DNA of 64,000 nucleotides from Escherichia phage MN01. Positions 1,171-56,098 of the stretch are shown in pieces. The stretch lies in sequence record MT129652.1. One strand, given 5' to 3'. The notes beneath the pieces were generated by a model that was not told the origin of the DNA, did no database searches, and worked only from the letters and a program-made list of their open reading frames with translations. A program made the translations under genes and the position numbers. The first letter of the stretch is position 1. Every line of letters starts with the position of its first letter.

Positions 1171-1273
1171 TTTAATCACAAGGATGTGATAGGAGGACTT
1201 ATGCGCAGAAATTTAGTGTACAAGCTCAAAGAAACGTAGTATCATTATCTTGTCAACTAATGAGGAAACCATT

Positions 1274-1504
1274 ATGTGGTATTATGCCCCAATGGCTGAT
1301 GAGCCTGTAAAAATTAGCCGTGCTAAGTTTACAAAGATTTACGGTCTCGTTTATAAAAAGTCTGATTACGGTGTGCGTTTTGAAGATGCACACTGTATCA
1401 ACGACCCTTATAATGAAGACCTCTATGGCAAATTGGTTCCTATCGTTAAGGGGTCCGCCTCTGAGATGATAGATGAATCTAATATATCTGCTGCTGAAAT
1501 TTAA
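1274..1504 (+). CDS. Hypothetical protein
   Basis: Second in-frame ATG of ORF 1250..1504 has GAGGAAA SD; promoter-leader cassette (GTGTACA ... ATCATTATC) directly upstream. Confidence 0.45.
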   Translation: MWYYAPMADEPVKISRAKFTKIYGLVYKKSDYGVRFEDAHCINDPYNEDLYGKLVPIVKGSASEMIDESNISAAEI

Positions 1505-5331: not shown

Positions 5332-5384
5332 GTTTACTTCCACGATACGTGTGATATAATGTTCTCCTACAAACATAGGAGAAC
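5332..5384 (+). promoter_or_regulatory. Sigma70-type early promoter followed by SD-sequestering hairpin upstream of denV
   Basis: GTTTAC (5332-5337), 17-bp spacer, TATAAT (5355-5360); then GTTCTCCT/AGGAGAAC inverted repeat (5361-5384) containing the SD. Confidence 0.5.
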
Positions 5385-5388
5385 AAAC

Positions 5389-5805
5389 ATGACTCGCATT
5401 AATTTGACCCTGGTATCTGAACTTGCTGACCAACATCTTATGGCCGAATATCGTGAACTTCCTCGCGTGTTTGGCGCTGTTCGTAAGCATGTGCAAAATG
5501 GTAAAAAGGTTTCTGACTTTAAAATCCCATCATCTTTTCTTTTAGGGACTGGTCATGTCACCTTCTTTTATGATAAGCTTTTGTTCCTTAAAAACCGACA
5601 TCAAGAACTTATTGCGGAATGTTTAAAGCGAGGGTTTAACATAAAAGATATTTCTACCCAAGACTTAACTGATATTCCTGATGAATGGAAGAATGATTAT
5701 CAACCATCAATCTGGTCAATTGAAATCAGTCAAGCTAGGCTGAATGAGAAAATTTCTCAAAAGCCCGCTTGGTACAAATACTATGGGAAAGCTGTGTACG
5801 CTTAA
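5389..5805 (+). CDS. denV: Endonuclease V (pyrimidine-dimer DNA glycosylase)
   Basis: [35 protein letters not shown]... near-identical to T4 endonuclease V; 138 aa. Confidence 0.92.
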
Positions 5806-6313: not shown

Positions 6314-6841
6314 ATGAAATTTTTAACTCCAATTTATCTAACCTTAATGCACGCCTTCGCTGAACGCGCCATTGAACGCTTAGATTCAGACCAATACGCC
6401 TGGTATGAACCCGCTTCAAGAATGCAAGAGTTTGGTACTCTTAGACTTGATGGTGGAAGACAAACGGGTAAAACAAGTGCCATTGCGCAGTTTGCTGCGG
6501 ATTGGGTTTCTAAGGGTAATGATGTGATTGTTATGTCAAGTTCTTCGCATCGCTCACGAGAAATCTGTGATATAATAAAGCGGGTTTCTAAGGCACAGCC
6601 GCATCTTAATGTTGAACGACCTGGTTTTGTTGTATATGATACTGTTCGTTCATTTTTAGATGAAGATCATTTTCACAAGTATCGTGGACTGTCTGTTACC
6701 CGATTATTGATTATTATTGAAGAGCCTATTCGTCTCCCAGCGATGGATAAGTTCTATGAAGCTTATCAGACAATGATGAATAAATTTATGCGTCAGGGTT
6801 CTAAACCTCTGCCACTGTTCTTTGTGGTAGGAATGCAATGA
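6314..6841 (+). CDS. Hypothetical P-loop protein
   Basis: 175 aa; Walker-A-like GGRQTGKTS. Confidence 0.5.
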   Translation: MKFLTPIYLTLMHAFAERAIERLDSDQYAWYEPASRMQEFGTLRLDGGRQTGKTSAIAQFAADWVSKGNDVIVMSSSSHRSREICDIIKRVSKAQPHLNVERPGFVVYDTVRSFLDEDHFHKYRGLSVTRLLIIIEEPIRLPAMDKFYEAYQTMMNKFMRQGSKPLPLFFVVGMQ

Positions 6842-7348: not shown

Positions 7349-7928
<580 letters not shown>

Positions 7929-7984
7929 TGTACAAGCAGATTGAAATGAGTTATGATTATCCCATCAAACAAAAGGAGATAATC

Positions 7985-8443
7985 ATGACTACTATCGATT
8001 CAAGTGTTTACATTCGCCGCAATAAACTTCGTCGCATTTTTGAAACGGAGTTCCTCAAAATTAATAATGCTATCAACAAGGCTTGTAAAGAAGCAGGCCT
8101 TGAAGCATTCTTCATTAAGTACAGTCCGCACCTGTTGGACCGTGCAATCCAACGTGAAATTGATGAACAATATGTTTTTGACTTGTTTGGAAAAATCACA
8201 CCACATGTAAAAGAAATCGTTGAATTCCTGGAGATGAAACCACTCCCGGAAGTTGAAGCACAAATTGACCCGAATGTGAACTACCGTCCACTTCGTCTGG
8301 AAATCACAGACAAGAACCTGTGGTTAGGAATGACAGTTAACCCGGCTCTTCCTGGGAAGTCTCCAACCATGTGTTGTCGTATGGCGTTTGTTAACTCTAA
8401 TCGTCTGGAAGGAAAAATTAGCACAAAAGTAATTTATATCTAA
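7985..8443 (+). CDS. regB: Probable RegB-like sequence-specific endoribonuclease
   Basis: MTTIDSSVYIRRNKLRRIFETEF... resembles the remembered T4 RegB N-terminus; 152 aa vs 153 aa in T4; lies between denV and tk as in T4; AAAAGGAG SD. Confidence 0.5.
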   Translation: MTTIDSSVYIRRNKLRRIFETEFLKINNAINKACKEAGLEAFFIKYSPHLLDRAIQREIDEQYVFDLFGKITPHVKEIVEFLEMKPLPEVEAQIDPNVNYRPLRLEITDKNLWLGMTVNPALPGKSPTMCCRMAFVNSNRLEGKISTKVIYI

Positions 8444-11798: not shown

Positions 11799-11803
11799 TT
11801 CAA

Positions 11804-11832
11804 AAGGTCTGCCTTCGGGTGGACCTTTTTTC
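11804..11832 (+). terminator. Rho-independent terminator
   Basis: AGGTCTGCCTTCGGGTGGACCT hairpin (UUCG loop) followed by TTTTTT. Confidence 0.6.
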
Positions 11833-11899
11833 ATTTAGGGGGTTTACATCCTCATAAAAAGGGTGTACTATTATCCCATCAACTACTGAGGAGAACACA

Positions 11900-12103
11900 A
11901 TGAGAATTAAAAATATTAAGATTGATGCAGTTAATACTGGTGATGAGGTTGTTATCTATCTTAATGATTATGCAATCTTTATGGACAGTGCCACTGATGA
12001 AGAAGTGGTTGAACTCTTACAGAAAGCTCCATTTGAACTGTGTGAAGAAGATGCTACTCATCTTTCATCAGCAATTTTCTCATTATCATATGTGGTGGAA
12101 TAA
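11900..12103 (+). CDS. Hypothetical protein
   Basis: 67 aa; promoter-leader cassette (ATCCCATCAACTACTGAGGAG) immediately upstream. Confidence 0.5.
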   Translation: MRIKNIKIDAVNTGDEVVIYLNDYAIFMDSATDEEVVELLQKAPFELCEEDATHLSSAIFSLSYVVE

Positions 12104-15332: not shown

Positions 15333-15393
15333 TTTTAAAGGTGTACAAACTTGTCTCTGTTGATGCATAATGAATTTTTACTAAGGAGCCATT

Positions 15394-15570
15394 ATGAATC
15401 ATATGAGACCTCGCGTATCCAAACAAACGCGAGAAGAAGCGATTGAACATTTTAAACGCCATCATGGAAGTCAATCATGCGAGGTGATTGTTGGTATCGA
15501 CATAGAAAAGATGAAGGAAACTGCCAAGCACTACCAGGGCAGGATTGATATTAAAAATTATATAAAGTAG
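15394..15570 (+). CDS. Hypothetical small protein (58 aa)
   Basis: ATG at 15394 with AAGGAG SD 7 nt upstream; below the ORF-track size cut-off. Confidence 0.4.
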   Translation: MNHMRPRVSKQTREEAIEHFKRHHGSQSCEVIVGIDIEKMKETAKHYQGRIDIKNYIK

Positions 15571-15639
15571 TGTACATCAGTATGGGGATAGACGTATAAT
15601 GTTCCCATACTGAGTTACCAAATAAAAACGGAGAATAAA
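15567..15639 (+). promoter_or_regulatory. Promoter-leader cassette, family A (GTGTACA...TATAAT in hairpin loop...CATACTGAGTTACCAAATA)
   Basis: Near-identical copy at 16154-16223; AGTATGGG/CCCATACT inverted repeat brackets the -10 TATAAT. Confidence 0.5.
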
Positions 15640-15846
15640 ATGTTAGAATTAATCAAAGCTGCTGGTGAAAAAGGTCTGATGGTTAACACTCGTGACCCTG
15701 AACAACGTCAAGCATTTGGTGAGTTAAAAGCTAAAGGTCTGGTTAAAGCATCCCTTGGTATTGGTAATGCTTTGCGTGTGACTTTGACCCCTGCTGGTAA
15801 AGCAATGTTCTTCCCTAAACCATTACCAAAACGTCGTCGCAAGTGA
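15640..15846 (+). CDS. Hypothetical small basic protein
   Basis: 68 aa; C-terminal PKPLPKRRRK. Confidence 0.5.
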   Translation: MLELIKAAGEKGLMVNTRDPEQRQAFGELKAKGLVKASLGIGNALRVTLTPAGKAMFFPKPLPKRRRK

Positions 15847-16155: not shown

Positions 16156-16223
16156 ATGTGTACATAGTATGGGGATAGACGTATAATGTTCCCATACTGA
16201 GTTACCAAATACTGGAGAATAAA
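16154..16223 (+). promoter_or_regulatory. Promoter-leader cassette, family A (second copy)
   Basis: GTGTACATAGTATGGGGATAGACGTATAATGTTCCCATACTGAGTTACCAAATA; differs from the 15567 copy at only a few positions. Confidence 0.5.
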
Positions 16224-16748
16224 ATGGAAGCCAAATCAATCTTTAATCTGATTAATTACAATAATGGTAATTTTAAATCAGAAGCACAAAGCAAGTTCTT
16301 TAATGATGTTGCTTGTGCAGGTGAGATTACAGTATCAGGTGGCCAAACTTATAAAAACGCCTGGAACTGGATTGTGACTGTTGATTCAGTTGGTATTGTT
16401 GATGTGTATAAAAACACCAATAAAAACCGCTCTTTGTTCTGGTCAAGAGAGACTAATGCTGAGTATCAGGCAACAAGAGCAAAGAAAAATATGCCTACTG
16501 AATCTGATGTACAAAACATCAAATCAGATATCCAGTATTATGATGGTCTGATTGCTGAACAACAAGCGGTGCTTGATAAGTTCAATGAAATCAAAGCATG
16601 CAAAGAAATTCCTGAATTCATGCGGGAATCAGTTAATGAACAATACAATCTCACTTCAGAGCGTATTGAAACCTATACCAAACAAAGAGCAGAGCGCCAG
16701 GTACTCCTTCAGAAGTTTGAAGAGCGTTTAAAGACGGTTCTCGCATAA
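16224..16748 (+). CDS. Hypothetical protein
   Basis: 174 aa ORF. Confidence 0.55.
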   Translation: MEAKSIFNLINYNNGNFKSEAQSKFFNDVACAGEITVSGGQTYKNAWNWIVTVDSVGIVDVYKNTNKNRSLFWSRETNAEYQATRAKKNMPTESDVQNIKSDIQYYDGLIAEQQAVLDKFNEIKACKEIPEFMRESVNEQYNLTSERIETYTKQRAERQVLLQKFEERLKTVLA

Positions 16749-23431: not shown

Positions 23432-23727
23432 AACGTTTTGAAGAATATGTAGCTACTAATTGGACTGCATGGGACAAGTTCGGTGATGAATGGTACTTCC
23501 ACGACTGTGACCTGGACCCGAAATTCTTTGCTGATAAAGAAGAAGACCTTAAAGATATCTATGCTCTATCTGAGATTCATGGAATCAAACCGACGGTTTA
23601 TTTCTCTTTCGATGACACAGGTTTCCTTATTCAGATTTATGTCCCGTACGCAACTTCCAGCGATGAAGAAGTTATTAAAACCTGGAACTACCAAGGAGTG
23701 ATTTCCTGTGGGCCAAAACTCGACTAA
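23428..23727 (+). CDS. Hypothetical acidic protein
   Basis: 99 aa; ATGA overlap. Confidence 0.5.
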   Translation: MKRFEEYVATNWTAWDKFGDEWYFHDCDLDPKFFADKEEDLKDIYALSEIHGIKPTVYFSFDDTGFLIQIYVPYATSSDEEVIKTWNYQGVISCGPKLD

Positions 23728-24025
23728 GATTGAAATCTATGGTATTCCCGAAGAAGTCGGTCGATGCCCAGGTTGTATGCACGTCAGGAGCCTTCTGGGC
23801 TCCTTAAACCTTCCTTATACATTCTATTCAGTCCTTAACAAACAAGGCTCTGAAATCGCTTATGACAGGCCTTTAATCGTGTCTCTGGCCAAGCGTGCTG
23901 GATATCCTACCCTTAACATTCGTTACCCGGTGATTTTTGTCAATGATGAAAAAATGACCAATATTCCTGCCTTTAAAACAAAACTGATATCCCTGGGGTA
24001 TGACCAGGACTTAATTGAAGATTAA
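23708..24025 (+). CDS. Glutaredoxin/NrdH-like thiol-disulfide oxidoreductase
   Basis: GTG start with AAGGAG SD; KIEIYGIP-x5-CPGC active-site pattern and later YPVIFVND resemble a glutaredoxin fold. Confidence 0.55.
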   Translation: MGQNSTKIEIYGIPEEVGRCPGCMHVRSLLGSLNLPYTFYSVLNKQGSEIAYDRPLIVSLAKRAGYPTLNIRYPVIFVNDEKMTNIPAFKTKLISLGYDQDLIED

Positions 24026-24030
24026 AAAGG

Positions 24031-24092
24031 GGTGTACAAGCCCCTTTGAATGATGTATCATTATCCCATCAACTACTGATGAGGAAAACATA
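24031..24092 (+). promoter_or_regulatory. Promoter-leader cassette, family B (GTGTACA in hairpin loop, TATCAT -10, ATCCCATCAACTACTGATGAGGA leader)
   Basis: GGGG-TGTACAA-GCCCC hairpin; leader motif recurs at about 11862, 43640, 50280, 54410 and in degenerate form elsewhere. Confidence 0.5.
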
Positions 24093-24269
24093 ATGACTAT
24101 CCAAGATAAAGAAATTAAAGTCAACCAGTATTATTCAATCAACGGCAAAGCTGTTCTAGTAACTGAAATATCTAGCCTGGATGTGTGGTATACCATAATT
24201 GACCTTAATATTAAAATGATTTGTGACCGTGGTGTATTTTGTTCGATAGCTAAGGAAATTAAATTATGA
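24093..24269 (+). CDS. Hypothetical small protein (58 aa)
   Basis: ATG at 24093 directly after the family-B leader; stop overlaps next ATG. Confidence 0.4.
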   Translation: MTIQDKEIKVNQYYSINGKAVLVTEISSLDVWYTIIDLNIKMICDRGVFCSIAKEIKL

Positions 24270-29591: not shown

Positions 29592-31270
29592 AGACTTTTA
29601 AGCTTAAGAAAGTTATCTATAAAAATATTATGTCGGTTGGTGCTCAACCGATTACTGTTGAACTGGATAAAGTCCAGAAAACTCTGGTCACCGGCAAGAA
29701 TGGTGCGGGTAAATCTACGTTCCTTGAAGCGGTTACTTTTGCTATGTTCGGTAAGCCTTTCCGTGATGTAAAGAAAGGCCAGTTGATTAACTCGAGCAAC
29801 AAAAAAGATATGCTCGTTGAATTGTGGATGGAATATGATGGAAAAGAATACTATATCAAACGCGGGCAAAAACCCAATGTTTTTGAAATCTCTTGTGGCG
29901 GTAAACGTCTTGATGAATCTGCCAGCAGTAAAGACTTCCAAGCGGAATTTGAACAGCTTATCGGAATGTCATACGCCAGTTTCAAACAAATCGTCGTACT
30001 CGGCACAGCTGGATATACCCCTTTTATGGGCCTATCCACTCCTGCAAGAAGAAAACTCGTCGAAGACCTGTTAGAGGTTTCTGTACTGGCCGATATGGAT
30101 AAGCTGAACAAATCTCTTATCCGCGAAGTCAATAGCCAAATCCAGGTTATGGATGTACAGCATGACGGTATCGTTCAACAGATTAAAATCTATCAGGACA
30201 ATGAAGACCGTCAAAGAAAATTGTCAGGTGATAATCTGTTGCGACTGCAAACGATGTATGATGAACTTGCCACAGAAGCACGTGGAATCAAGGCAACTAT
30301 CGAAGAAGCAACGACAAGACTGACTGAAATAATCTTGGGAGAAGACCCCGAGCATGAACTCACGAAGTTAAAGCAGGAATCATTCCTGATTAAATCGAAG
30401 ATTGACGATTATCGAAAGGTTGTCAGCCTGTACGAGAAAGGTGGTTGTTGTCAGACTTGTGCTAGTCAGTTGCATCCAGGAGACCCTATTGTCGCCAGGA
30501 TTGAGTCAAAGATTGAAGAATGTAATGCATCGGCTGATAAGCATAAAGCTCGTCAGAATGCTGTTCAGGAGCAATTTGATACGTATTCTGCTGCAAGACA
30601 AAACCAGCGTACAATAGCACAAGACATTCAAACTAAGAAACAAACCTTAGTCCAGACTGTCGAAAAGGCTAAAAAGGTTAAAGCATTAATCGAGCAAGCC
30701 AAGTCAGAATTCATTGACCACGCAGCAGACATTAAAATGCTTCAAGACCAGCTTGATAAAATAGTCAAACAGAAATCTGACCTTGTGATGGAAAAATATC
30801 AACGTGGTATCCTAACGGATATGTTGAAAGATTCTGGTATTAAGGGCGCGATTATTAAGAAATATATTCCTATCTTTAATAAGCAGATAAACGCTTATCT
30901 TAAAGTTATGGAAGCTGATTATAGCTTTACGTTAGATGAAGAGTTCAACGAAACGATTAAATCTCGTGGTCGTGAAGACTTCAGCTATGCATCATTTAGC
31001 CAGGGTGAAAAAGCTCGTATCGATATTGCATTGCTGTTTACATGGCGCGATATTGCTGCAAAAGTATCTGGTGTGCAAATTAGTACGTTGATTCTGGATG
31101 AGGTCATGGATTCAGCCACTGACGCCGAAGGCATCAAAGCTATCCAGGCAATTATCAATAAATTGGAAGGTCAAAACGTGTTTATCATCAGTCACCGAGA
31201 CCATGACCCAGAAGCATATGGACAGCATCTTCAAATGAAAAAAGTCGGTCGATTTACTGTTCTGGAATGA
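29588..31270 (+). CDS. 46: Recombination ATPase gp46 (Rad50/SbcC-like)
   Basis: GTG start; Walker A TGKNGAGKST, central coiled coil with CxxC zinc hook (GGCCQTCASQ), signature SQGEKARI, Walker B LILDEV; 560 aa as in T4. Confidence 0.93.
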   Translation: MKTFKLKKVIYKNIMSVGAQPITVELDKVQKTLVTGKNGAGKSTFLEAVTFAMFGKPFRDVKKGQLINSSNKKDMLVELWMEYDGKEYYIKRGQKPNVFEISCGGKRLDESASSKDFQAEFEQLIGMSYASFKQIVVLGTAGYTPFMGLSTPARRKLVEDLLEVSVLADMDKLNKSLIREVNSQIQVMDVQHDGIVQQIKIYQDNEDRQRKLSGDNLLRLQTMYDELATEARGIKATIEEATTRLTEIILGEDPEHELTKLKQESFLIKSKIDDYRKVVSLYEKGGCCQTCASQLHPGDPIVARIESKIEECNASADKHKARQNAVQEQFDTYSAARQNQRTIAQDIQTKKQTLVQTVEKAKKVKALIEQAKSEFIDHAADIKMLQDQLDKIVKQKSDLVMEKYQRGILTDMLKDSGIKGAIIKKYIPIFNKQINAYLKVMEADYSFTLDEEFNETIKSRGREDFSYASFSQGEKARIDIALLFTWRDIAAKVSGVQISTLILDEVMDSATDAEGIKAIQAIINKLEGQNVFIISHRDHDPEAYGQHLQMKKVGRFTVLE

Positions 31271-31275
31271 GCCTC

Positions 31276-31992
31276 TTATTGAGGCTTCATTTTGCAGTTA
31301 TCAAAATGCCAACGTTTCATATTAGCTGGCATACCGACTACATTACAGTGTGGACACTGAATTTTGGGGTCCACCTTTTTCTTCCGGTTTGGATTGGATT
31401 TGCAGAATTGTTGGTGAGTGGATATAACACACTTTTTACCTTCAAGCCCGCAAAATTCACAATTTAAAATTTCATGTTTAGCTTGTTTTAAACCTACTGA
31501 AATTTTTTGCTTTTGCTTTTCCGGAATAGTATGAACAACCTTGTTTGGACCTTTGGAACAGTTATCAAAATGCCAACGATTCATATTGCCAGCGAGACCG
31601 GTTTTTCCACAGTGTGGACATTCGACTCTCGGTTTTAATTTGGCGGATTCTGACATTTTCTTTCTGGTTTCATCGGAGAAAATTTTATTTTGTTGAGCTT
31701 CCAAGTTTTTACGACGAAGCCATCCAAATAATTTGTTTTTGCTTCTGTCGGCATTTGGTGCAGAAACTGTCATCATGCGCGCGGCATAGACCAAAGAAGC
31801 GTTATTTGGATGCATTTTGACCAACAGTTGATGGCAAACGAAATGTTCCTCGGGAGTTAAATCAACAAGATTTGAAGCGTCGTCAGCCCCACCCATACAA
31901 CGGGGTATAATGTGATGGCTTTCAGAGTATGTGGTTAATTTGCGATTCAATGCTCTGCTAATAAGCTTTTGGTAAATGATGTTATAATTCAT
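31276..31992 (-). CDS. HNH homing-endonuclease-like protein with duplicated C-terminal zinc fingers
   Basis: Only long minus-strand gene in the region; HNH core SESHHIIPRCMGGADDASNLVDLTPEEHFVCH; repeats CPHCGKTGLAGNMNRWHFDNC and CPHCNVVGMPANMKRWHFDNC; start taken at internal ATG (MNYNIIYQ). Confidence 0.7.
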   Translation of the reverse strand: MNYNIIYQKLISRALNRKLTTYSESHHIIPRCMGGADDASNLVDLTPEEHFVCHQLLVKMHPNNASLVYAARMMTVSAPNADRSKNKLFGWLRRKNLEAQQNKIFSDETRKKMSESAKLKPRVECPHCGKTGLAGNMNRWHFDNCSKGPNKVVHTIPEKQKQKISVGLKQAKHEILNCEFCGLEGKKCVISTHQQFCKSNPNRKKKVDPKIQCPHCNVVGMPANMKRWHFDNCKMKPQ

Positions 31993-32005
31993 ATCAGACC
32001 CTTGT

Positions 32006-32224
32006 TTGATACTGCAACGGATAATATTATTTATGAGCAATTTTTTAACCGGGCAGCATTTACTGGCTGTCCCTGAAATTAAACGGTATGTGTTAGTTAA
32101 TACCTTTTCGAAAGATGAACACCTTGTCACTGAACGTGACTTGCAAAACGCTTTCGGTGAAGAATATGTTAAAATAATCGCGAACAGACACAATGCCTGG
32201 TTCGCATATGAATACTTTGATTAA
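32006..32224 (+). CDS. Hypothetical protein (uncertain; 45.2 position)
   Basis: 72 aa ORF between the HNH gene and rpbA; no motif. Confidence 0.3.
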   Translation: MILQRIILFMSNFLTGQHLLAVPEIKRYVLVNTFSKDEHLVTERDLQNAFGEEYVKIIANRHNAWFAYEYFD

Positions 32225-38142: not shown

Positions 38143-38211
38143 GTGTTTACAACGGCAAAGGACTGCCGTATGATTACTCCATCAACTGATGATTAAATTA
38201 AGGATATTAAA

Positions 38212-38454
38212 ATGGAAACATTAATTGCAGGTACTGTTGTTCTTGGCGCTGGTTCTTTCTTCCTGGCTGCACTGGCATATTTTCTGCCGTGGATTATCGC
38301 ACTACTGCGAGGAACCAAAAGTAATTGCGGAATCTTCTTTGTTAACCTCCTGTTAGGTTGGACAATGGTCGGATGGTTTATTGCATTTATCTGGGCACTC
38401 GTTGCTGAGCGTAAATCAAACGCACAAGTAATTATCATCAAGGAAACCAAATGA
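38212..38454 (+). CDS. imm: Imm-like superinfection immunity membrane protein
   Basis: 80 aa, two TM helices, LLGWTMVGWFIAFIWAL motif; immediately downstream of 43 as in T4. Confidence 0.55.
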   Translation: METLIAGTVVLGAGSFFLAALAYFLPWIIALLRGTKSNCGIFFVNLLLGWTMVGWFIAFIWALVAERKSNAQVIIIKETK

Positions 38455-38594
38455 AGATAATTACAATTATTGTACTGACTGCATTTTTTAGTATGTCAAT
38501 CTATTGGGCAATAATGACTCCGCATATGATTCCAACTTTAATTTTGGGTTGGGTATTTTTGGGACTCCAAGCTCGCTATGAATGTTTTAATTGA
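38451..38594 (+). CDS. Hypothetical small membrane protein (47 aa)
   Basis: ATGA overlap with the imm stop; hydrophobic. Confidence 0.3.
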   Translation: MKIITIIVLTAFFSMSIYWAIMTPHMIPTLILGWVFLGLQARYECFN

Positions 38595-38604
38595 GGAAAA
38601 TACA

Positions 38605-39108
38605 ATGAAAAAGTTAGCTATCGCAGCTGTTATGCTGCTATCTGGTTGTGCTTACCAGGGTGATGTTGTTAATGCCAACGAGATTGGTAAAGCGCGAATT
38701 GCTGCAGACCGTCAGGTGCATAATGGTTCCTTTGATTTCAAAGGTGGTACTGGACTTATCTACAAACGCGACAACAATCAATGTGGAAATAACTGCGCGA
38801 AATATGCTCAACGTGAAGTTGAATATCAGCGTGAACAAGCCGCGAAGCATGATGAAGTAATCGCTAAATTGGAAGCAGAAACCAAGCGACAAAATGACCT
38901 GGATACTGTTAACCAGATTTCACAGGTCTGCATGTCATATATCAATATGCAGATAAACATCATGCGTGCAGAAGCTTATCAGGCAGCGGAGACGGGTTCT
39001 CCAAAAGCCAATGAGTATCGCGATATGTATCAGCGTTCTGCTCAAAACCGTCTGAGCTATATTAATAAATGTGTAGCTAAAGAGAAAGCACGCCAAGGTA
39101 TTAACTGA
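38605..39108 (+). CDS. Putative lipoprotein
   Basis: Signal peptide with lipobox MKKLAIAAVMLLSGC after GAGGAAAAT SD; helical/coiled C-terminal region; 167 aa. Confidence 0.55.
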   Translation: MKKLAIAAVMLLSGCAYQGDVVNANEIGKARIAADRQVHNGSFDFKGGTGLIYKRDNNQCGNNCAKYAQREVEYQREQAAKHDEVIAKLEAETKRQNDLDTVNQISQVCMSYINMQINIMRAEAYQAAETGSPKANEYRDMYQRSAQNRLSYINKCVAKEKARQGIN

Positions 39109-39215
39109 TGCTATTATTACTTCTGATTGTTGGAACAGTAATTGGTTTGCTGCTATTAGAAAAGCGTAATAAGCATTTGGCTGAAGAAAACTGGAAACGT
39201 GGAAACGTTTACTAA
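39108..39215 (+). CDS. Hypothetical single-pass membrane peptide (35 aa)
   Basis: MLLLLLIVGTVIGLLLL... ; ATG overlaps the lipoprotein stop. Confidence 0.3.
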   Translation: MLLLLLIVGTVIGLLLLEKRNKHLAEENWKRGNVY

Positions 39216-39242
39216 ATTACTCTGAACTGCGAGAAAAATATT

Positions 39243-39371
39243 ATGATTGGTACGCTATTGATTAGTCTGTGGCTGTTGTCTGCATTTGGTATTGGTTTTA
39301 TGTACTGGTGGGACAAACGTCAGACCCGGAAGATTGTTGAACGTGCAATTAATCGTGGATTCAATCGTTAA
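39243..39371 (+). CDS. Hypothetical single-pass membrane peptide (42 aa)
   Basis: MIGTLLISLWLLSAFGIGFMYWW... hydrophobic N-terminus, basic C-terminus. Confidence 0.3.
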   Translation: MIGTLLISLWLLSAFGIGFMYWWDKRQTRKIVERAINRGFNR

Positions 39372-39450
39372 TTGCTCTAAAAATACAGTGATATAATTAT
39401 CCTATCTTAAACCTGTGAGAAAAATATAATGGTGCCTATGGAAAAAATGA

Positions 39451-40629
39451 ATGTCTATTGCAGATTTGAAATCCCGTTTGATTAAAGCTTCTACATCTAA
39501 AATGACTGCGACTCTTACCAAGTCCAAGTTTTTTAATGATAAAGATGTAGTTCGTACAAAAATCCCGATGCTGAACATTGCAATCAGCGGTGCACTAGAT
39601 GGTGGTATGCAGTCAGGTTTGACTATTTTTGCTGGTCCGTCAAAACACTTTAAATCCAATATGGGTTTAACGATGGTCTCTGCATATATGAACAAATACC
39701 CCGATGCAATCTGTTTGTTCTATGATTCAGAATTTGGTATCACAGAAGCATATCTTCGTGCAATGAAAGTAGACCCGGAACGTGTTATCCATACACCAAT
39801 CCAGTCGGTTGAACAATTGAAAGTTGATATGGTTAACCAGCTTGAAGCAATTGAGCGTGGTGAAAAAGTCATTATCTTTATTGACTCAATCGGTAACATG
39901 GCGTCGAAAAAAGAAACAGAAGATGCGATGAACGAAAAAGTCGTTGGCGATATGACTCGTGCTAAATCCCTGAAATCTCTGTTCCGTATTGTTACCCCAT
40001 ATTTTAGTATCAAGGATATTCCTTGTGTCGCGGTTAACCATACAATCGAGACGATTGAGATGTACAGCAAAACCGTTATGACCGGTGGTACAGGTGTTAT
40101 GTATTCTGCGGACACAGTATTCATTATCGGCAAACGCCAGATTAAAGAAACTGGTAAAGAACTTGAAGGTTTCCAATTTGTTCTGAACGCCGAAAAATCT
40201 CGTATGGTCAAAGAGAAAAGTAAATTCTTCATTGATGTAAAATTCGATGGTGGTATTGACCCGTATTCTGGTCTGCTTGATATGGCAATGGAAATCGGAT
40301 TTGTGGTGAAACCGAAAGTTGGTTGGTATAACCGTGAATATCTTGATGTTGAGACCGGTGAAATGGTCCGCGAAGAAAAATCATGGCGTGCAAAAGATAC
40401 TAACTGCACCGAATTCTGGGGTCCGTTGTTCAAGCACGAACCTTTCCGCGATGCAATCAAACGCCATTACCAACTGGGTGCAATCGATAGCAATGCTGTT
40501 GTTGATGCCGAAGTTGATGCGCTTATTGCCTCCAAGGTTGAAAAATACTCTGCTCCTGAAGGTAAGACAAAACCGTCTGCTGCAGATATCGAAAACGATT
40601 TAGATATGATGGAAGACCTTGATGAATGA
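39451..40629 (+). CDS. uvsX: Recombinase UvsX (RecA-like)
   Basis: MSIADLKSRLIKASTSKMTATLTKSKFFNDKDVV..., Walker A GPSKHFKS; 392 aa vs 391 in T4. Confidence 0.95.
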   Translation: MSIADLKSRLIKASTSKMTATLTKSKFFNDKDVVRTKIPMLNIAISGALDGGMQSGLTIFAGPSKHFKSNMGLTMVSAYMNKYPDAICLFYDSEFGITEAYLRAMKVDPERVIHTPIQSVEQLKVDMVNQLEAIERGEKVIIFIDSIGNMASKKETEDAMNEKVVGDMTRAKSLKSLFRIVTPYFSIKDIPCVAVNHTIETIEMYSKTVMTGGTGVMYSADTVFIIGKRQIKETGKELEGFQFVLNAEKSRMVKEKSKFFIDVKFDGGIDPYSGLLDMAMEIGFVVKPKVGWYNREYLDVETGEMVREEKSWRAKDTNCTEFWGPLFKHEPFRDAIKRHYQLGAIDSNAVVDAEVDALIASKVEKYSAPEGKTKPSAADIENDLDMMEDLDE

Positions 40630-42387: not shown

Positions 42388-42403
42388 AATATTTTTAAAA
42401 AAG

Positions 42404-42485
42404 GGGTGTACAAGCCCCTTGTCTTAGGACATAATGATTCCGTACTGAGTTACACAATAAACCAACTGTTAAAAAGGAAAACCAT
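42404..42485 (+). promoter_or_regulatory. Promoter-leader cassette (GGGG-TGTACAA-GCCCC hairpin, CATAAT -10, CGTACTGAGTTACACAATA leader)
   Basis: Hybrid of the family A leader with the family B style hairpin. Confidence 0.45.
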
Positions 42486-42788
42486 ATGTTTAATCAAACC
42501 GATATGAACCGTTACTATTTTGGTCAGTTCGCTCGCCGTGATGAAAACTGTGCTGCTCTTATCGCATCAGGCATTCAAACTGGTAAATTAATAAAGCTCA
42601 AAAGCGATGTTCAACCTTCATCTGTTCGCAGCTCTCTTCGTGAGTATCTGCTTGCAGGCGGTGAAGTATATGTTATCGCTGAACCTTTTGTTAACGTGTG
42701 TGATGATTACACAATTAGTGTGACTGTTATGCACCCAACTACTGGGAAAATTCGTTGTCTGACTATGCACAACTATGAGTTGGCGTAA
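42486..42788 (+). CDS. Hypothetical protein
   Basis: 100 aa; terminator follows. Confidence 0.5.
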   Translation: MFNQTDMNRYYFGQFARRDENCAALIASGIQTGKLIKLKSDVQPSSVRSSLREYLLAGGEVYVIAEPFVNVCDDYTISVTVMHPTTGKIRCLTMHNYELA

Positions 42789-42795
42789 GTGAACA

Positions 42796-42818
42796 AAGGG
42801 GCTTACAGCCCCTTTTTC
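42796..42818 (+). terminator. Rho-independent terminator
   Basis: GGGGC-TTACA-GCCCC + TTTTT. Confidence 0.6.
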
Positions 42819-42856
42819 TTATGTTATAATGACTCTATCAACTACTGGAGAATAAA

Positions 42857-43174
42857 ATGAAAACCATTGATTGCAAGGCAGAATACAAAGTTTATTATCA
42901 TGGGTCAAGCTCTAATGCTGGAATCCAAAATATGCTTTGTCCTCCTGATGCAACTGGTGTTCTGTCAGAAGTTGGACGTAAGAAAAATTTAGGGCGTGTG
43001 TTTTTTACTGAAGATATTGGTTTGGCGCGTATCTATGCAGGAAGAGCAGCTCGCTCATATGGAGGAGAACCCCGTCTTTATCGTGTGATTGCACCGGTTG
43101 ACGTGGTTTGTTTAAATGATACTAAAGGCGCAACAGTTTATCACGCTGCCTGGGCCTTTTGTGAGGAAATCTAA
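42857..43174 (+). CDS. Hypothetical protein
   Basis: 105 aa ORF. Confidence 0.5.
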   Translation: MKTIDCKAEYKVYYHGSSSNAGIQNMLCPPDATGVLSEVGRKKNLGRVFFTEDIGLARIYAGRAARSYGGEPRLYRVIAPVDVVCLNDTKGATVYHAAWAFCEEI

Positions 43175-43378: not shown

Positions 43379-43618
43379 ATGAATATCGCATTAATGAAAC
43401 CTACCCCTAGTTCTTTTTGGAATAAATCTTTTGGTAAGCATAATATGTTTATCCAACGCACCGTAAGCAGCTGGGAACTAGTTCTTTCAGTCGGCCACAA
43501 TGATTATGAACAAGAATACGTAGAGTTCTTCGATTTTCCTGTGAAACCTACCAAGCGTCAGATTCGTCAGACAAAACGCAAATTCCGCAAAATTTATCTG
43601 GAAGATGCATTAAAATAG
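43379..43618 (+). CDS. Hypothetical basic protein
   Basis: 79 aa ORF. Confidence 0.45.
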   Translation: MNIALMKPTPSSFWNKSFGKHNMFIQRTVSSWELVLSVGHNDYEQEYVEFFDFPVKPTKRQIRQTKRKFRKIYLEDALK

Positions 43619-43675
43619 TGTACAACAAAGGGATAATGCTGTATATTATCCCTATCAACTACTGAGGAGATTGAA

Positions 43676-43969
43676 ATGAAAAAGTTATTAATCGCGGCAA
43701 TTCTTACCGTAGCATCATGTGGTACAGCTCCAGTTACTGCTGGACTTGATAAAGACCTTTGTGAGTGGTCTATGACTGCCGACCAGACTGATGTTGAACA
43801 TCAGATTTATGCTGATATCATGAACATAACTAAACGTGACCGCCCTGATATGGTTAAAGAAGTATCTGACCAATTGACTTCTGGTGACGTTATGCAGTAT
43901 AACTATGTTCTGTATTGCGATGCTTCATTTGACAATAGCAAAATTGTTCAATGGGTTACAGGTGAATAA
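43676..43969 (+). CDS. sp: Spackle-like periplasmic protein (possible superinfection exclusion)
   Basis: 97 aa with signal peptide MKKLLIAAILTVASCGTAPVTA; same size and position (between 41 and 61) as T4 Spackle. Confidence 0.5.
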   Translation: MKKLLIAAILTVASCGTAPVTAGLDKDLCEWSMTADQTDVEHQIYADIMNITKRDRPDMVKEVSDQLTSGDVMQYNYVLYCDASFDNSKIVQWVTGE

Positions 43970-43970
43970 A

Positions 43971-44408
43971 ATGATTAACAGAAATTTAGTTATCAAAAAA
44001 CTTCGCTGTAAAAATCCAAATGCACAGGCATACCGGGTGTTTTGGAGCGATGAAATTCAATACCTGGGTTATTTTCTTGTTGATAGTGATGACAGAATTA
44101 CGTTTGCTCATAAGCTTCTTAACAAAGAATTAAACCATTGGCAAGAACTTATTGCAGTCAAGTCTAAATTATTTTCGCGCAATACAATGCACCAATTGGT
44201 TTATTTTTTCGCTGATGGTATTCCTGACAAGGTTGAATTTGATGGGTTTGAATTTAAAGACATCAACCCTGACAATGAATTGAATGACAGTATTGTTAAT
44301 ATGGGTATCCCAGGTAAGTACATTAAAAACAGTCTTTTGAAACTTCTGGAAACCCCTGTATATTCAGTAGACGACCAAATTTTTAATGCCTTTATGAAGC
44401 GAGATTAA
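43971..44408 (+). CDS. Hypothetical protein ending DDQIFNAFMKRD
   Basis: 145 aa; C-terminal 11 codons plus junction repeated at the end of the next gene. Confidence 0.5.
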   Translation: MINRNLVIKKLRCKNPNAQAYRVFWSDEIQYLGYFLVDSDDRITFAHKLLNKELNHWQELIAVKSKLFSRNTMHQLVYFFADGIPDKVEFDGFEFKDINPDNELNDSIVNMGIPGKYIKNSLLKLLETPVYSVDDQIFNAFMKRD

Positions 44409-44409
44409 T

Positions 44410-44778
44410 ATGTATATTCAAAGCGATTTATCTTATCTGAATTTTGAATTAGTTAAAAATAATGATGGTAATGCTCATTATGAATTCCGTGAACCCAGGT
44501 TTAATCAGGCGATTGGTTATATCATCGTTAAAGATGATGTTATCATAAAGGCTCGCTCATTTATGGTAATGAATGGGCCTTATGAAGATACTCGTGGCTA
44601 TCCATTTGATAAAAAGAATGTACGCGATTGTGCAGCATGGATAACCGGAAACCCTGAAATTGGGGTCATGTTATCTACTGAAGCAAATGACATTCTGGAT
44701 GCTGGCTGGGTTAAAGCTCAAGAACCGCCTACTGATATTGATGACCAGATTTTTAATGCTTTCATGAAGCGAGGTTAA
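44410..44778 (+). CDS. Hypothetical protein ending DDQIFNAFMKRG
   Basis: 122 aa; shares only the C-terminal block with the upstream gene. Confidence 0.5.
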   Translation: MYIQSDLSYLNFELVKNNDGNAHYEFREPRFNQAIGYIIVKDDVIIKARSFMVMNGPYEDTRGYPFDKKNVRDCAAWITGNPEIGVMLSTEANDILDAGWVKAQEPPTDIDDQIFNAFMKRG

Positions 44779-44779
44779 T

Positions 44780-44971
44780 ATGACTGCAATGTGTACGGGC
44801 TCTAAGATTTCGGTCTTCCAGATTTTTGAAGAATATGAAATCGTGTCGCAAGACCAAGAAGCAATCCATGTTATTGCTGATGATGGGGTTACCTGGATTA
44901 TTCCGTTGTATCATGAAGACACTTATGAAGTGACTGATGCAAATGGTGATAAAGCTATCTTCGTTGTATAA
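44780..44971 (+). CDS. Hypothetical small protein
   Basis: 63 aa ORF. Confidence 0.4.
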   Translation: MTAMCTGSKISVFQIFEEYEIVSQDQEAIHVIADDGVTWIIPLYHEDTYEVTDANGDKAIFVV

Positions 44972-49705: not shown

Positions 49706-50266
49706 ATGAACATCATCAAATCTGATACCGAACCCAACCAGTTAAAATTTAGTGAAATGGAGATAGCTTCATTATTTGAATGCCGCACATCAAAGGTTGA
49801 TAAGACCTTGCATTCAAATGTCAACTCAATCATCAAGTCAAGGTTGTCTATACCCGATACAGTCTTGTGGCGCGGAGTAACCCAGCAAGAGATTGATTTG
49901 TTAGATGAAGCAAAAGAATCAATGCAACCTTTTGAATTTGGACGGGTAACCTCCTTTACAGAAGACTATGGTATTGCCAGGGATTTTGCTGCAATGGAAT
50001 ATGTGACTAGGACTATCGTCAGATTGAATCAGACCAAAGCTTTTTGTTACCATGATGCGATGCGCAAAATCGCGCTTGACGTTCCACTGGAATTCTTCAA
50101 TACAGCTTCTGGTTCCGCCCGGGCAGCTACATTAAGGCGCGAAGAATACATGGACATGATTGATTCTGAGCTTGAATGGTTTGTTCCAGTTGACCAGAAA
50201 TTCGTGGTAGTTGACGCTGGATTTGTTGGTGATTATTATGTTCTTGACTGTGTACAAGAGCAATAA
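49706..50266 (+). CDS. ADP-ribosyltransferase, ModA/ModB-like (first copy)
   Basis: R-S-ExE triad candidates LWRGVT, TSFT, ELEWFVP; 186 aa; tandem with a paralog. Confidence 0.6.
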   Translation: MNIIKSDTEPNQLKFSEMEIASLFECRTSKVDKTLHSNVNSIIKSRLSIPDTVLWRGVTQQEIDLLDEAKESMQPFEFGRVTSFTEDYGIARDFAAMEYVTRTIVRLNQTKAFCYHDAMRKIALDVPLEFFNTASGSARAATLRREEYMDMIDSELEWFVPVDQKFVVVDAGFVGDYYVLDCVQEQ

Positions 50267-50310
50267 GACACGTTAAGATGTTCCTATCAACTACTGATGA
50301 GGATAATAAA

Positions 50311-50925
50311 ATGCTGTACACTGATGACGTTTTGAATGGAATTATTGACACTGCCGCTTCTAGCGAGTCTTTTCGTGACCAATGTCAAGCTGAGATTGAT
50401 GCTCTTTATACAGATAATGAGCAATCAGTACTCTGGCAGTGTATGGAAAATAAACCCGACCTGATTCAAGAAGACTTGTCCAGGATTATCCGCAACAATC
50501 TGAATACTGCACCGCCGGCAGCATTGTTCCGTGGTATATCAAAGAAAACCATGGAATACCTGGAAGATTTAAGATATGTTGGTGCAATAATTGAGTTCAA
50601 CCGTGTGATGAGTTTTTCCAGAGACTGGCAGGTTGCAAGAAATTTTGCATCATACAGTTTCTATGGCACAAGGAACATTTTCTGTATAAACAATGCACCA
50701 TATGCGTATAACTATCAGGAAGCAATCTTCAAAATGATTTGCGGTGCTCCTCCCGAAGAGTTCAATGGTGCATATCCAGAAGCAACCAGGAAGTCAAACC
50801 TACACCTGGTTAATGATGAGGATGAGTTTATGTTTCCCGCTGGGACTACGCTTCGCGTAGACTTGATTGAAACTCACCCATTGAATAACCTTTATACTGT
50901 TTGGCATTTGACTGTTTTGAACTAA
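50311..50925 (+). CDS. ADP-ribosyltransferase, ModA/ModB-like (second copy)
   Basis: LFRGIS, MSFS, DEDEFMFP motifs; 205 aa; family-B leader upstream. Confidence 0.6.
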   Translation: MLYTDDVLNGIIDTAASSESFRDQCQAEIDALYTDNEQSVLWQCMENKPDLIQEDLSRIIRNNLNTAPPAALFRGISKKTMEYLEDLRYVGAIIEFNRVMSFSRDWQVARNFASYSFYGTRNIFCINNAPYAYNYQEAIFKMICGAPPEEFNGAYPEATRKSNLHLVNDEDEFMFPAGTTLRVDLIETHPLNNLYTVWHLTVLN

Positions 50926-50982: not shown

Positions 50983-51060
50983 TAGTGTACATGAAAGATG
51001 AACAGTGTATAATAATTTCATACTGAGTTACCAAATCGTCCGTAAGATGAGAAAAATAAC
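50983..51060 (+). promoter_or_regulatory. Promoter-leader cassette, family A variant
   Basis: GTGTACATGAAAGATGAACAGTGTATAATAATTTCATACTGAGTTACCAAAT. Confidence 0.45.
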
Positions 51061-51804
51061 ATGAATATGTCAAAAGAAGAGTTTGAATTAAAAGTTTACA
51101 AACGTCGCGAGCATACCAAAACGTCTGCAAAACGTCGTAACAAGGATTTCAATCTGTCTAGTAAGTATATTGCTAATCTTTTGAAACAAGAATTCTGTGC
51201 GTATTCTGGTGAACGTTTTGATGAAAATTCAACTCAAGATAAAGTTTCCTTTGAACGCTTTAACAATGATATAGGTTATATTGAAGGCAATGTTATCCCT
51301 GTCAAAACTAAGTACAACGGTTTACGTGCTGATTTATCTCTTGATGAACTTAAACGTGCACAGACTCGTTTGGCGGTGCGTATTAATGGCGGTTCTAAGA
51401 TGCCCAATAGTTTTAAAGTAACTCCTGATGGCTATTATAAAATTCGCAAAATTGTTAAAAATATTAAAGATACTGAACGTGGAATCAAGAAGCGTCAAAA
51501 ACATTTAAAAGAGCTTTATAAAAGTGGCGCTAAAGATACCACCCCTTCTGTGATTGCAGTCAAGGCTCGTATACATGGACAAATGGCTTCCATTGGAACT
51601 AGTCAACGTGGACTGAAAATGGTTATGGGTGGTCCTGACTGGCGTCTGAAAATGAAATCATCTGACGCTGAAACGCGTTACGATATGTATGATAAAATTA
51701 TTCAAGGTCTGGAGCGTTTAGATAAGTTGTCATTCATTGACCGTCTTAAACTGAAACGTGGCCTGCCTTTGAACGCGTCAATTTTTAAACTGATTAGAGG
51801 TTAA
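51061..51804 (+). CDS. srd: Srd-like protein
   Basis: 247 aa basic protein at the T4 srd position (between the modA/modB-like genes and dda.1/dda); no motif confirmed. Confidence 0.4.
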   Translation: MNMSKEEFELKVYKRREHTKTSAKRRNKDFNLSSKYIANLLKQEFCAYSGERFDENSTQDKVSFERFNNDIGYIEGNVIPVKTKYNGLRADLSLDELKRAQTRLAVRINGGSKMPNSFKVTPDGYYKIRKIVKNIKDTERGIKKRQKHLKELYKSGAKDTTPSVIAVKARIHGQMASIGTSQRGLKMVMGGPDWRLKMKSSDAETRYDMYDKIIQGLERLDKLSFIDRLKLKRGLPLNASIFKLIRG

Positions 51805-54378: not shown

Positions 54379-54445
54379 AAAGTAGTGTACAAGGCCAATG
54401 GAAAGAGACATAATTATCTCATCAACTACTGATGAGGATAACAAA

Positions 54446-54703
54446 ATGATTACTTCTTTTGAAATTGGCCAACAATATGAAATGTCTGCTCTTCAAGCTG
54501 CTGAAGCAGGTCTGACTAAAGCGTTTGAATGTGCATTTACAAATATTCGTGGTAAAATCTTTACTGTCAATAAAATTGCGGTATATGATAAAGAAACAGA
54601 CATGAACAAAGGCATCTACTTGAACGTGTCAAACGCAAAAGGTCGTCGTGAAATTATGGTTGTACAACCTAACCAACTGGCGATGTTCAATAAGGTTGCA
54701 TAA
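54446..54703 (+). CDS. Hypothetical protein
   Basis: Internal ATG right after the family-B leader; 85 aa. Confidence 0.45.
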   Translation: MITSFEIGQQYEMSALQAAEAGLTKAFECAFTNIRGKIFTVNKIAVYDKETDMNKGIYLNVSNAKGRREIMVVQPNQLAMFNKVA

Positions 54704-55458: not shown

Positions 55459-55537
55459 ATTTAAAGTGTACAAACTCTTGGGGTCGGAGTATAATGACCC
55501 CACTGGAGAATAAACTTATTAACCAAGAGAGAAAATT

Positions 55538-56098
55538 ATGAAAGTTGAAGCTGGCGAAATCGTTCGCGTATCCAAAAAATCTCGTTCAAGAGCTGCTGGA
55601 CGTTTTGTTGAGGTTGTCAGTATTCGTGCTGATATTTTTGTTGACCATCCTGATAATGAAGTAAAGGTGCGTATCATTCCCAAAAATGGTCAGACTGAAA
55701 CTCAATTCGCTTATGTACGTGCTAAATTCCTGGAATCAACTGCTATCACTGCCACCAACCTCCCTGTGGTTGAAGAAGTTGAATCCCATGATGGATATGT
55801 GTGCGAAAGCAATGATATTCGTGGCGTAATTGCTCAAGACGTTGAAACCATTGACCAGTCTCATGTTGGGGTTGATTTTAAATGGAAATTGGGCAAAGGT
55901 GTCTTTTTTGTTTCACCTAAACCGTTTGAATATGTTGACGAACCTTTTGGTACTTATGAAACCACTAGCATGTCTGGTTACATCACAGACCAGTGGGTTG
56001 AAGAAGGCGTTAAGCTCTATAACATCGTGTTCCTTGGAACCTTTAAGGTGGTTCCTGAAAGCTTTATCGTTGAGTATGCTGATATTCATCGTGCCTAA
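55538..56098 (+). CDS. Hypothetical protein; paralog of 54703..55458
   Basis: 186 aa; C-terminal GYITDQWVEEGVKLYNIVFLGTFKVVPES. Confidence 0.55.
   Translation: MKVEAGEIVRVSKKSRSRAAGRFVEVVSIRADIFVDHPDNEVKVRIIPKNGQTETQFAYVRAKFLESTAITATNLPVVEEVESHDGYVCESNDIRGVIAQDVETIDQSHVGVDFKWKLGKGVFFVSPKPFEYVDEPFGTYETTSMSGYITDQWVEEGVKLYNIVFLGTFKVVPESFIVEYADIHRA

Follow-up and report, generated by a model that had tools for sequence, protein, structure and literature searches.

The closest described counterparts of the element reported here are PeSL ("promoter-early stem-loop") cassettes, known from RB49/phi1 (Arbiol et al. 2010, PMC2839356) and from T4/PST and KVP40/nt-1 (Comeau et al. 2014, PMC4122927). Arbiol et al. 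described repeated intergenic motifs that start in an A/T-rich region at the stop codon of the preceding gene and finish with a Shine-Dalgarno (SD) sequence and start codon. They contain sigma-70-like boxes and a stem-loop (in many cases polyG...polyC) that can take any of five positions, one of them over the -35 box; lacZ fusions and inverse PCR indicated a terminator or attenuator stem-loop, strong early expression and mini-circles (PMC2839356). Comeau et al. extended the PeSLs to T4/PST (TTTACW-N17-TAYWAT) and KVP40/nt-1 (PMC4122927). Terminator-like activity was reported in these papers for one RB49/phi1 stem-loop, and the coupling of termination to re-initiation is already a published PeSL concept. 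We present here an analysis of 64,000 nucleotides (nt) of Escherichia phage MN01 (sequence record MT129652.1), referred to as the window, which centers on an element between the homologues of nrdH and 55.6 (positions 24,031 to 24,092; the focal copy). This element and its relatives are very likely PeSL-type early-gene expression cassettes of a T4-like phage, an assignment carried by their anatomy, copy number, strand, position, conservation, mosaicism and junctions and by the promoters that T4 has at orthologous gaps.

T4 early promoters have GTTTAC at -36..-31, an A-rich block at -40..-44 and a TAnnnT -10 box (Hinton 2010, PMC2988021; Nolan et al. 2006, PMC1524935). C residues at -3..-1 occur in RB69, RB49 and 44RR, and other T4-like genera also depart from the T4 hexamer. 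Early T4 messages may in addition carry the 11-nt target of RegB/S1, GG*AGRAYARAA, with the T4 optimum GGAGAAUAAAA (Durand et al. 2006, PMC1702504). GGAA sites are very poorly cut even in good context, sequence upstream of GGAG is not required, and only two GGAU sites of T4 are cut by RegB, one of them at motB.2 (PMC1702504).

The predicted promoter-leader family in the window

The 4-kb stretch around the focal copy matches 597 phage records, the best of which are Escherichia phages VR7, VR20, TH44 and pEC-M719-6WT.2 (91-96% identity). The source is assigned on sequence to the Straboviridae, Tevenvirinae, genus Gaprivervirus (VR7/SP18/TH44 group), as a T4-like coliphage. By the annotation of VR7, the window contains, in order, e/denV, regB, tk, mobD, nrdC, 49, nrdH, 55.x, 55, 47, 46, 45, 44, 62, regA, 43, imm, uvsX, 40, 41, dmd, 61, 56, modB/modA, srd, dda, dexA, motB, 39 and rIIA. 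The early genes all lie on the + strand, which is the direction of early transcription. The focal gap extends from the nrdH stop codon (24023-24025) to the ATG of the 55.6 homologue (24093).

One module fills this gap and recurs elsewhere: a -35 box (G)TGTACA, a 17-nt spacer, a TAnnnT -10 box, a (C/T)-rich -3..-1, the leader ATCAACTACTG(A/G), and an SD with ATG. Nine intergenic gaps contain it, six with the exact 12-mer and three in degenerate form, and all nine copies occupy stop-to-ATG gaps between early-strand open reading frames (ORFs). The order of parts is shared by every copy. An A-rich tract is followed by GTGTACA, GTTTACA or GCTTACA, an unrelated 17-nt spacer, the -10 box, a six-base discriminator ending in CCC, CCT or CTC, the 12-mer, the SD and, 6-9 nt on, the ATG, so that TGTACA/TTTACA/CTTACA-N17-TAnnnT is found throughout and the cassettes end 3' in an SD and start codon.

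The module recurs more often than expected. TGTACAAGCCCC at <=2 mismatches occurs 12 times in the window against 2.9 expected, a number reached in 0 of 100 shuffles, and the 17-nt leader ATCCCATCAACTACTGA has 6 occurrences at <=3 mismatches where 0.24 would be expected. Exact copies of the core ATCAACTACTGR stand at 11878, 24068, 42837, 43654, 50286 and 54421, on the + strand in all six cases, and a repeat finder clusters these copies with degenerate ones at 1209, 7921 and 38145 (cassettes 1216, 7928 and 38145). When 22 copies are aligned, the spacer is variable and the register of -35, -10 and leader is fixed. Over 19 cassettes, the 14 nt upstream of -35 are 78% A+T (42% A), against 60% (31% A) window-wide, and the -35 box reads GTGTAC in 13, GTTTAC in 4 and GCTTAC or ATGTAC in 2.

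A sequence-only reading of the window had described the focal letters as a promoter with a fixed leader that recurs upstream of several genes. The letters at 24026-24095 are as it described them, and each coordinate it listed corresponds to a cassette between a + strand ORF stop and the next ATG, the degenerate copies at 1216, 7928 and 38145 included. Predicted promoters with a fixed leader are well supported in sequence by boxes, spacing, A/T tract, C-rich -3..-1, strand and position. The motif search that this reading had proposed for the full genome was run in TH44, the closest complete genome, with the leader alone as query: all 15 bona fide copies have the full architecture, lying on the early strand in fixed -35/-10 register with an SD and ATG downstream, and five further matches are bare near-matches without cassette features.

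T4 has consensus early promoters (GTTTACA-N17-TAnnnT) at the orthologous gaps nrdH-55.6, 43-imm.1 and dexA-motB.2 and at sp, srd and motB. At nrdH-55.6, T4 has a separate terminator hairpin and, ~90 nt on, GTTTACA-N17-TATTAT. ATCAACTACTGA is exact at the T4 imm.1 and cef promoters, with a near-exact copy at sp, and the VR7 and T4 orthologues of the degenerate 38145 cassette have the exact leader. MotA-dependent middle promoters were considered and rejected, since no TGCTT box is present around -30 in any aligned copy.

For MN01 we infer promoter activity, start site, termination and RegB cleavage from the DNA sequence, as follows. Each cassette would fill the 55-70 nt between two + strand genes and hold an early promoter dependent on the host sigma-70. 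The predicted transcript begins with the A of ATCAACTACTG and has an unstructured 5' untranslated region (UTR) ending in an SD and A-rich spacer. In most copies this SD-spacer block would fit the 11-nt RegB/S1 site (GGAG/U-RAYARAA), so that the early mRNAs could be switched off by phage RegB. A stem-loop would be optional and variable in position (upstream of -35, around -35, between the boxes, or over -10). Its folding would be confined to read-through RNA of the preceding gene, and its effect there would be to attenuate or end transcription or to shield the 3' end of the preceding message. Short identical blocks shared among the cassettes would allow them to recombine with one another and so produce mosaics, promoter swaps and the gain or loss of promoter-plus-ORF units in close relatives. 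The features are collected in Table 1, where family A denotes the cassettes with the leader just described.

Table 1. Positions of the focal cassette, its parts and its relatives in the window
Feature	Position	Strand	Details
nrdH homologue stop	TAA 24023..24025	+	ORF 23708..24025; focal cassette starts directly after
Focal stem-loop	24026..24047	+	AAAGGGGU pairs with GCCCCUUU, loop GUACAA; -35 in loop and inner stem
Focal -35	heptamer GTGTACA 24032..24038 (hexamer TGTACA)	+	Gaprivervirus variant of T4 early GTTTACA
Focal -10	TATCAT 24056..24061	+	17 nt past -35
Focal discriminator	TATCCC 24062..24067	+	C-rich -3..-1, like other T4-like early promoters
Focal leader core	ATCAACTACTGA 24068..24079	+	Predicted transcript +1..+12; G-poor, unstructured, invariant across leader family
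Focal SD	24081..24092	+	GAGGA and A-rich spacer to ATG; motif GGAA
Downstream gene	24093..24269	+	T4 55.6 homologue, 58 aa
Degenerate family-A cassette	1216..1276	+	Leader GTCAACTAATGAGGA
Degenerate family-A cassette	7928..7987	+	Upstream of regB homologue; leader ATCAAACAAAAGGAG
Family-A cassette	11842..11902	+	Upstream of mobD.5 homologue; GTTTACA, N17, TACTAT, exact leader
Degenerate family-A cassette	38145..38214	+	Between gene 43 and imm; leader ATCAACTGATGA
Twin of focal 5' module	42398..42488	+	23 nt AAAAAGGGGTGTACAAGCCCCTT identical at 24024 and 42398
Family-A cassette	42795..42859	+	-35 CTTACA inside stem-loop; -10 TATAAT; leader ATCAACTACTGGAGAATAAAATG
Family-A cassette	43618..43678	+	Upstream of sp-like gene
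Family-A cassette	50239..50313	+	Upstream of modA; -35 inside end of modB
Weak A/U-rich 8-bp stem	50239-50262	+	TGTTCTTG/CAAGAGCA; encloses -35 within modB end
Family-A cassette	54385..54448	+	After dexA; SD region GGATAACAAAA fits RegB/S1 consensus

A second leader family, GTTCCCATACTGAGTTACCAAATA, is present at 15570-15640, 16158-16224, 42406-42486 and 50985-51061. It has a 12-bp stem (AGTATGGGGATA...GTTCCCATACT) across -10 and the start site, and two of its copies, 15579-15624 and 16166-16211, are 100% identical over 46 nt. Both families have CCCAT...ACTGAG in common. This second family is probably the one that the sequence-only reading had counted as the first.

Stem-loops and termination

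That the -35 box lies inside a GC hairpin, proposed earlier as a feature of the family, applies to only some copies. GGGG..CCCC arms occur only at 24026-24047 and 42401-42420. The focal stem around -35 gives -13.3 kcal/mol for a 43-nt segment (z = -3.4), with -11.3 kcal/mol for the hairpin. That at 42401-42420, also significant on folding, belongs to the same 23-nt module as the focal copy, there joined to the other leader family, and a third stem around -35 is found at 42795-42815 (GGGGC-TTACA-GCCCC, z = -3.5). The 43618 copy has a stem-loop, GGGATAAT/ATTATCCC (43629-43653), over -10; the 11842 copy has a separate strong terminator-like hairpin upstream (11802-11829), its stem between the boxes being weak; and copies 1216, 7928 and 54385 fold into no meaningful stem-loop. 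The position over -35 described for PeSLs is thus seen at 24026 (the focal copy), 42401, 42795 and, in the weak A/U-rich stem, 50239, and is inconsistent over the family.

Stems change in a coordinated way between relatives. In the cassette orthologous to 42795 a compensatory change separates the window (GGGGC/GCCCC) from VR7 (GGGGG/CCCCC). At the motB early promoter (window 55466-55538 versus T4 7215), a stem-loop lies over -10 in both phages and reads GGGGTC/GACCCC in the window and GGGACC/GGTCCC in T4; these two compensatory double changes suggest selection on the stem. In T4 (6560-6620), upstream of cef, the leader ATCAACTACTGAT has its exact reverse complement, ATCAGTAGTTGAT, earlier in the promoter spacer, and the two form a 13-bp stem over -10, a PeSL-like stem made from the leader itself.

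Termination is less uniform. On the + strand the focal hairpin is followed by UUUGAAUG, with just three U's, and the terminator scan does not call it. The only + strand stem with the look of an intrinsic terminator is that at 42795-42815, where a T-run follows and the call overlaps a 10/12 promoter match (CTTACA-N17-TATAAT). The hairpin had been read earlier as a weak terminator for the upstream gene; the scan bears this out for 42795-42815 and not for the focal copy. Likewise, the proposal that one module couples termination to re-initiation fits a minority of copies, several members being without a hairpin. A strict version, in which every member ends the upstream transcript at a GC hairpin containing the -35 and restarts transcription from the same DNA with a fixed leader, is doubtful. 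The 42795-42815 stem passes both terminator and promoter scans, the focal hairpin and its 42401-42420 twin are stable, and the activity reported for the one RB49/phi1 stem-loop points the same way. Yet no more than 3-4 of the window's 9 family-A copies have the -35 box in a stem, the focal stem runs into UUUGAAUG with no + strand call, and the TH44 site matching 42406 retains promoter and leader without the 5' arm.

The focal hairpin might also serve mainly the opposite strand, where it would be an intrinsic terminator that stops transcription (late-direction or antisense) running on the minus strand into the early region. The scan calls it on the minus strand only, at 24047-24026, as terminator-like, with 7 pairs (4 GC) followed by TTTTTAATC (UUUUU), and the 42398 twin keeps the A5 tract on the 5' side of the stem. 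We regard this as very unlikely: the neighbourhood yielded no minus-strand genes or promoters, the A-tract fits equally well the UP-like A-rich element found upstream of all cassettes, and in the related 42795 hairpin the T-run is on the + strand. An optional stem-loop of a PeSL-type cassette, read from the early strand, is the explanation we prefer.

The leader and the Shine-Dalgarno region

Counted from the predicted +1 (the A seven bases past -10), the 5' UTR would be about 16-26 nt long. Leader folds from +1 range from 0 to -5.7 kcal/mol, the same as shuffles, whereas the cassette hairpins reach significant stability (z about -3). On these folds we rejected a structured cis-regulatory RNA (riboswitch, attenuator or small-RNA-like element), and a translational enhancer pairing with 16S rRNA was rejected because the best duplex of the leader with E. 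coli 16S rRNA (-8.3 kcal/mol) is weaker than the shuffle mean (-9.4 kcal/mol). A 5-7 bp stem, CAUCA/UGAUG, is possible beside the SD in three copies, but it is missing from the TGAGGAG variants, and an Rfam scan of the whole window at the gathering threshold gave no match. Either kind of leader is extremely improbable.

Conservation was compared at six orthologous loci, window-TH44 and window-VR7, chosen for presence of the leader in all three genomes. Changes number 1/144 sites in +1..+12, 2/84 in the -35 box, 5/84 in the -10 box, 7/72 in the discriminator and 19/192 in the spacer, making +1..+12 the best-conserved segment of the cassette among loci that were preselected for having the leader. 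A 38-nt consensus matches 842 phage records, among them T2, RB51 and a large number of Tequatrovirus and Klebsiella T4-like phages, at 10-12 places per genome in Gaprivervirus versus 1-4 in Tequatrovirus. In RB51 the leader is upstream of tRNA.4 and adjoins an Ip gene, in a JS98-type genome it is upstream of an nrdC.4-like gene, and one Tevenvirinae record with the leader annotates the adjoining sequence as a predicted early promoter. The 12-nt block is common to T4, T2-type, JS98-type, Gaprivervirus and Klebsiella T4-like phages, in which the neighbouring spacers are unrelated. An exact-pattern scan of IMG/VR returned at least 120 loci; as these are mostly single chance matches in unrelated contigs, they were left out of the statistics. 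The leader sequence was not quoted in the literature searched, and a T4 NAD-cap/dRNA-seq preprint offered no usable start-site table for the orthologous genes.

A short UTR of this kind would lie wholly within the footprint of the ribosome and S1 and has probably been selected for efficient initiation, escape and ribosome loading. The alternative, that the first 12 transcribed bases, AUCAACUACUGA, are a discrete functional signal beyond any part of a promoter or ribosome-binding site, seems unlikely to us. In its favour are the tight conservation and wide spread of the block, its G-poor, unstructured make-up and the failure of both the RegB site and 16S pairing to account for it. Such a block might offer S1 or the 30S subunit a place to bind or be a promoter-escape determinant, or it could mark a subset of immediate-early mRNAs for a fate under phage control, be it early shut-off, 5'-end-dependent decay or NAD-cap handling.

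In its 3' half the leader consists of the SD and A-rich spacer, which in many cassettes reads GGAGAAUAAAA, GGAUAAUAAAA or GGAUAACAAAA. The RegB/S1 consensus is matched at 11/11 positions at 42847, 50301 and 54436 and at 10/11 at 11890 and 38202. The T4 motB.2 leader is the orthologue of the 54385 cassette, and the degenerate 7928 cassette precedes a regB homologue in the window. The focal copy reads GGAAAACATAA, without the GGAG/U of the site; as its GGAA is of the kind poorly cut in the experiments of Durand et al., it is predicted to be RegB resistant. Since RegB requires no sequence upstream of GGAG, it leaves the 5' half of the leader, AUCAACUACUGA, unexplained.

Mosaicism and likeness to known systems

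The 23-nt focal 5' module reappears at 42398 in fusion with the other leader family (GATTCCGTACTGAGTTAC... / GTTCCCATACTGAGTTACC), so the cassette modules are mosaics. Comparison with close relatives gives further junctions at or near cassettes. TH44 lacks a 217-nt unit that the window has at 15340-15556, comprising a GTGTACA promoter and an ORF of 58 aa without a Pfam match; the indel junction falls within the -35 heptamer (...AGTGTACA), and VR7 has a different 387-nt segment there. In TH44 a family-A cassette with its ORF is inserted exactly at 42388/42406, where the resident promoter lacks the 5' GGGG arm. Aligning the window with both TH44 and VR7 also reveals a gene replacement (43383-43611) that stops at the -35 box of cassette 43618 and, in VR7, an insertion of 650 nt placed 8 nt before the 2486 promoter. 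The denV promoter has been swapped: VR7 and TH44 carry a family-A-like leader, ATCAACTACGG, and the window an unrelated hairpin leader (5332-5389). Within this window leader (5332-5395), GTTCTCCTA-caaaca-TAGGAGAAC can pair and sequester the GGAG SD.

Rearrangement events with a boundary inside a cassette number 5/28 against TH44 or VR7, some exactly in GTGTACA, which exceeds uniform placement (p = 0.008) and does not exceed what events falling at gene junctions in general would give. The cassettes might be seen as recent duplications or gene-conversion products, recombination scars without a selected leader function. Mosaic cassettes that exchange between loci and genomes and identical blocks of 23 nt and 20 nt in non-orthologous copies are what such scars would leave. 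Against this, the same 12-nt leader is found at early promoters of T4, RB51, JS98-type and Klebsiella T4-like phages beside unrelated spacers, orthologous leaders changed at 1/144 sites versus 19/192 in the spacer, and strand and register to -10 and ATG are invariant. We therefore give scars alone little credence and retain PeSL-type cassettes that recombine.

Several observations count against the PeSL assignment. The focal -35, TGTACA, has 4/6 matches to TTGACA and is one base off the T4 early TTTACA. The three members without a stem-loop (1216, 7928 and 54385) would strictly be early promoters and not full PeSLs. The focal hairpin does not have the form of an intrinsic terminator on the + strand, and because most cassette stems lack a U-tract, classical intrinsic termination is doubtful for them. 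Cassette-bearing gene junctions show no enrichment of breakpoints over other junctions (odds ratio 1.4, p = 0.57), so a recombinogenic role is illustrated by the examples above and not demonstrated. Finally, no component of the PeSL model accounts for the strong conservation of +1..+12.

Other differences among the relatives were noted. Neither TH44 nor VR7 has a 773-nt segment that lies at 31268-32042, between gene 46 and 45.2/rpbA, and holds a 62-nt direct repeat (31295-31356 and 31559-31620; 77% identical), small + strand ORFs and a 305-aa minus-strand ORF (31276-32193). This minus-strand ORF and the small ORFs beside cassettes had no Pfam match above threshold. Two adjacent paralogous small genes, 43884..44408 and 44410..44778, are 88% identical over 43 nt at their 3' ends (44370-44412 and 44740-44782), and TH44 and VR7 have ~190 nt extra at this pair, which suggests copy-number variation of a tandem gene. 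From imm to uvsX (38212-39451) the window, like VR7, has a single 176-aa ORF, and T4 has there gene 42 (dCMP hydroxymethylase), beta-gt and segA. The one ORF in their place hints that the group may lack glucosyl-hydroxymethylcytosine DNA.

The cassettes share parts with several known systems. With intrinsic terminators the focal copy has in common a GC-rich stem-loop directly after the stop codon, and it differs in lacking a coding-strand U-tract and in enclosing a promoter element in its stem. The RegB/S1 site is resembled by a single-stranded GGAG/U followed by AAYAAAA between SD and ATG at 42847, 50301, 54436, 15630 and 16214, whereas the focal and 1216 copies carry GGAA, and such a site accounts for the 3' half of the leader only. 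For the T-even internal-protein (IP) locus, conserved flanks are described by Repoila et al. (1994), as cited in PMC4122927. TH44 has three family-A cassettes in tandem within 650 nt (43400, 43733 and 44042), with an RB51 counterpart at 1120-1540. Such tandem arrays of the promoter-leader cassette precede Ip genes and tRNA.4 in both phages; as their ORFs begin with MKTYQEF, the internal-protein targeting sequence, the IP locus uses the same cassette, and the conserved flanks described for it may correspond to this leader.

T4 early promoters are matched in architecture, in location upstream of early genes and in the C-rich -3..-1, and they stand at orthologous gaps, three with the same or nearly the same leader. 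In contrast to T4, most copies in the window have G, not T, at the third base of GTTTAC, and the extended upstream block, TTTCACAAAGTT in T4, is AAAAAGTA/GG in the window.

Compared with PeSLs, the differences are that Gaprivervirus is outside the genera analysed in the PeSL papers; that -35 is TGTACA here and TTGACA (RB49) or TTTACW (T4/PST) there; that several copies in the window are without any stem; that a near-invariant 12-mer, undescribed in those papers, lies between +1 and SD; and that enrichment of rearrangements at cassettes could not be demonstrated here. The 12-nt leader start, more tightly conserved over Tevenvirinae than the promoter boxes, is of wider interest. The likenesses are an A/T-rich tract, sigma-70-like boxes at N17 and an SD and start codon at the 3' end; a polyG/polyC stem-loop of variable position, that over -35 included; and repeated, partly identical copies, some of them at indel and replacement junctions of close relatives. 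The window thus offers sequence-level examples of small accessory genes gained, lost or re-promoted between near-identical phages via cassettes, which bear on annotation and on the engineering of therapeutic coliphages. PeSL-type terminator-promoter-leader cassettes, known from three other T4-like branches and previously uncatalogued in Gaprivervirus, very likely organise early expression in this genus as well, with a slightly different -35.

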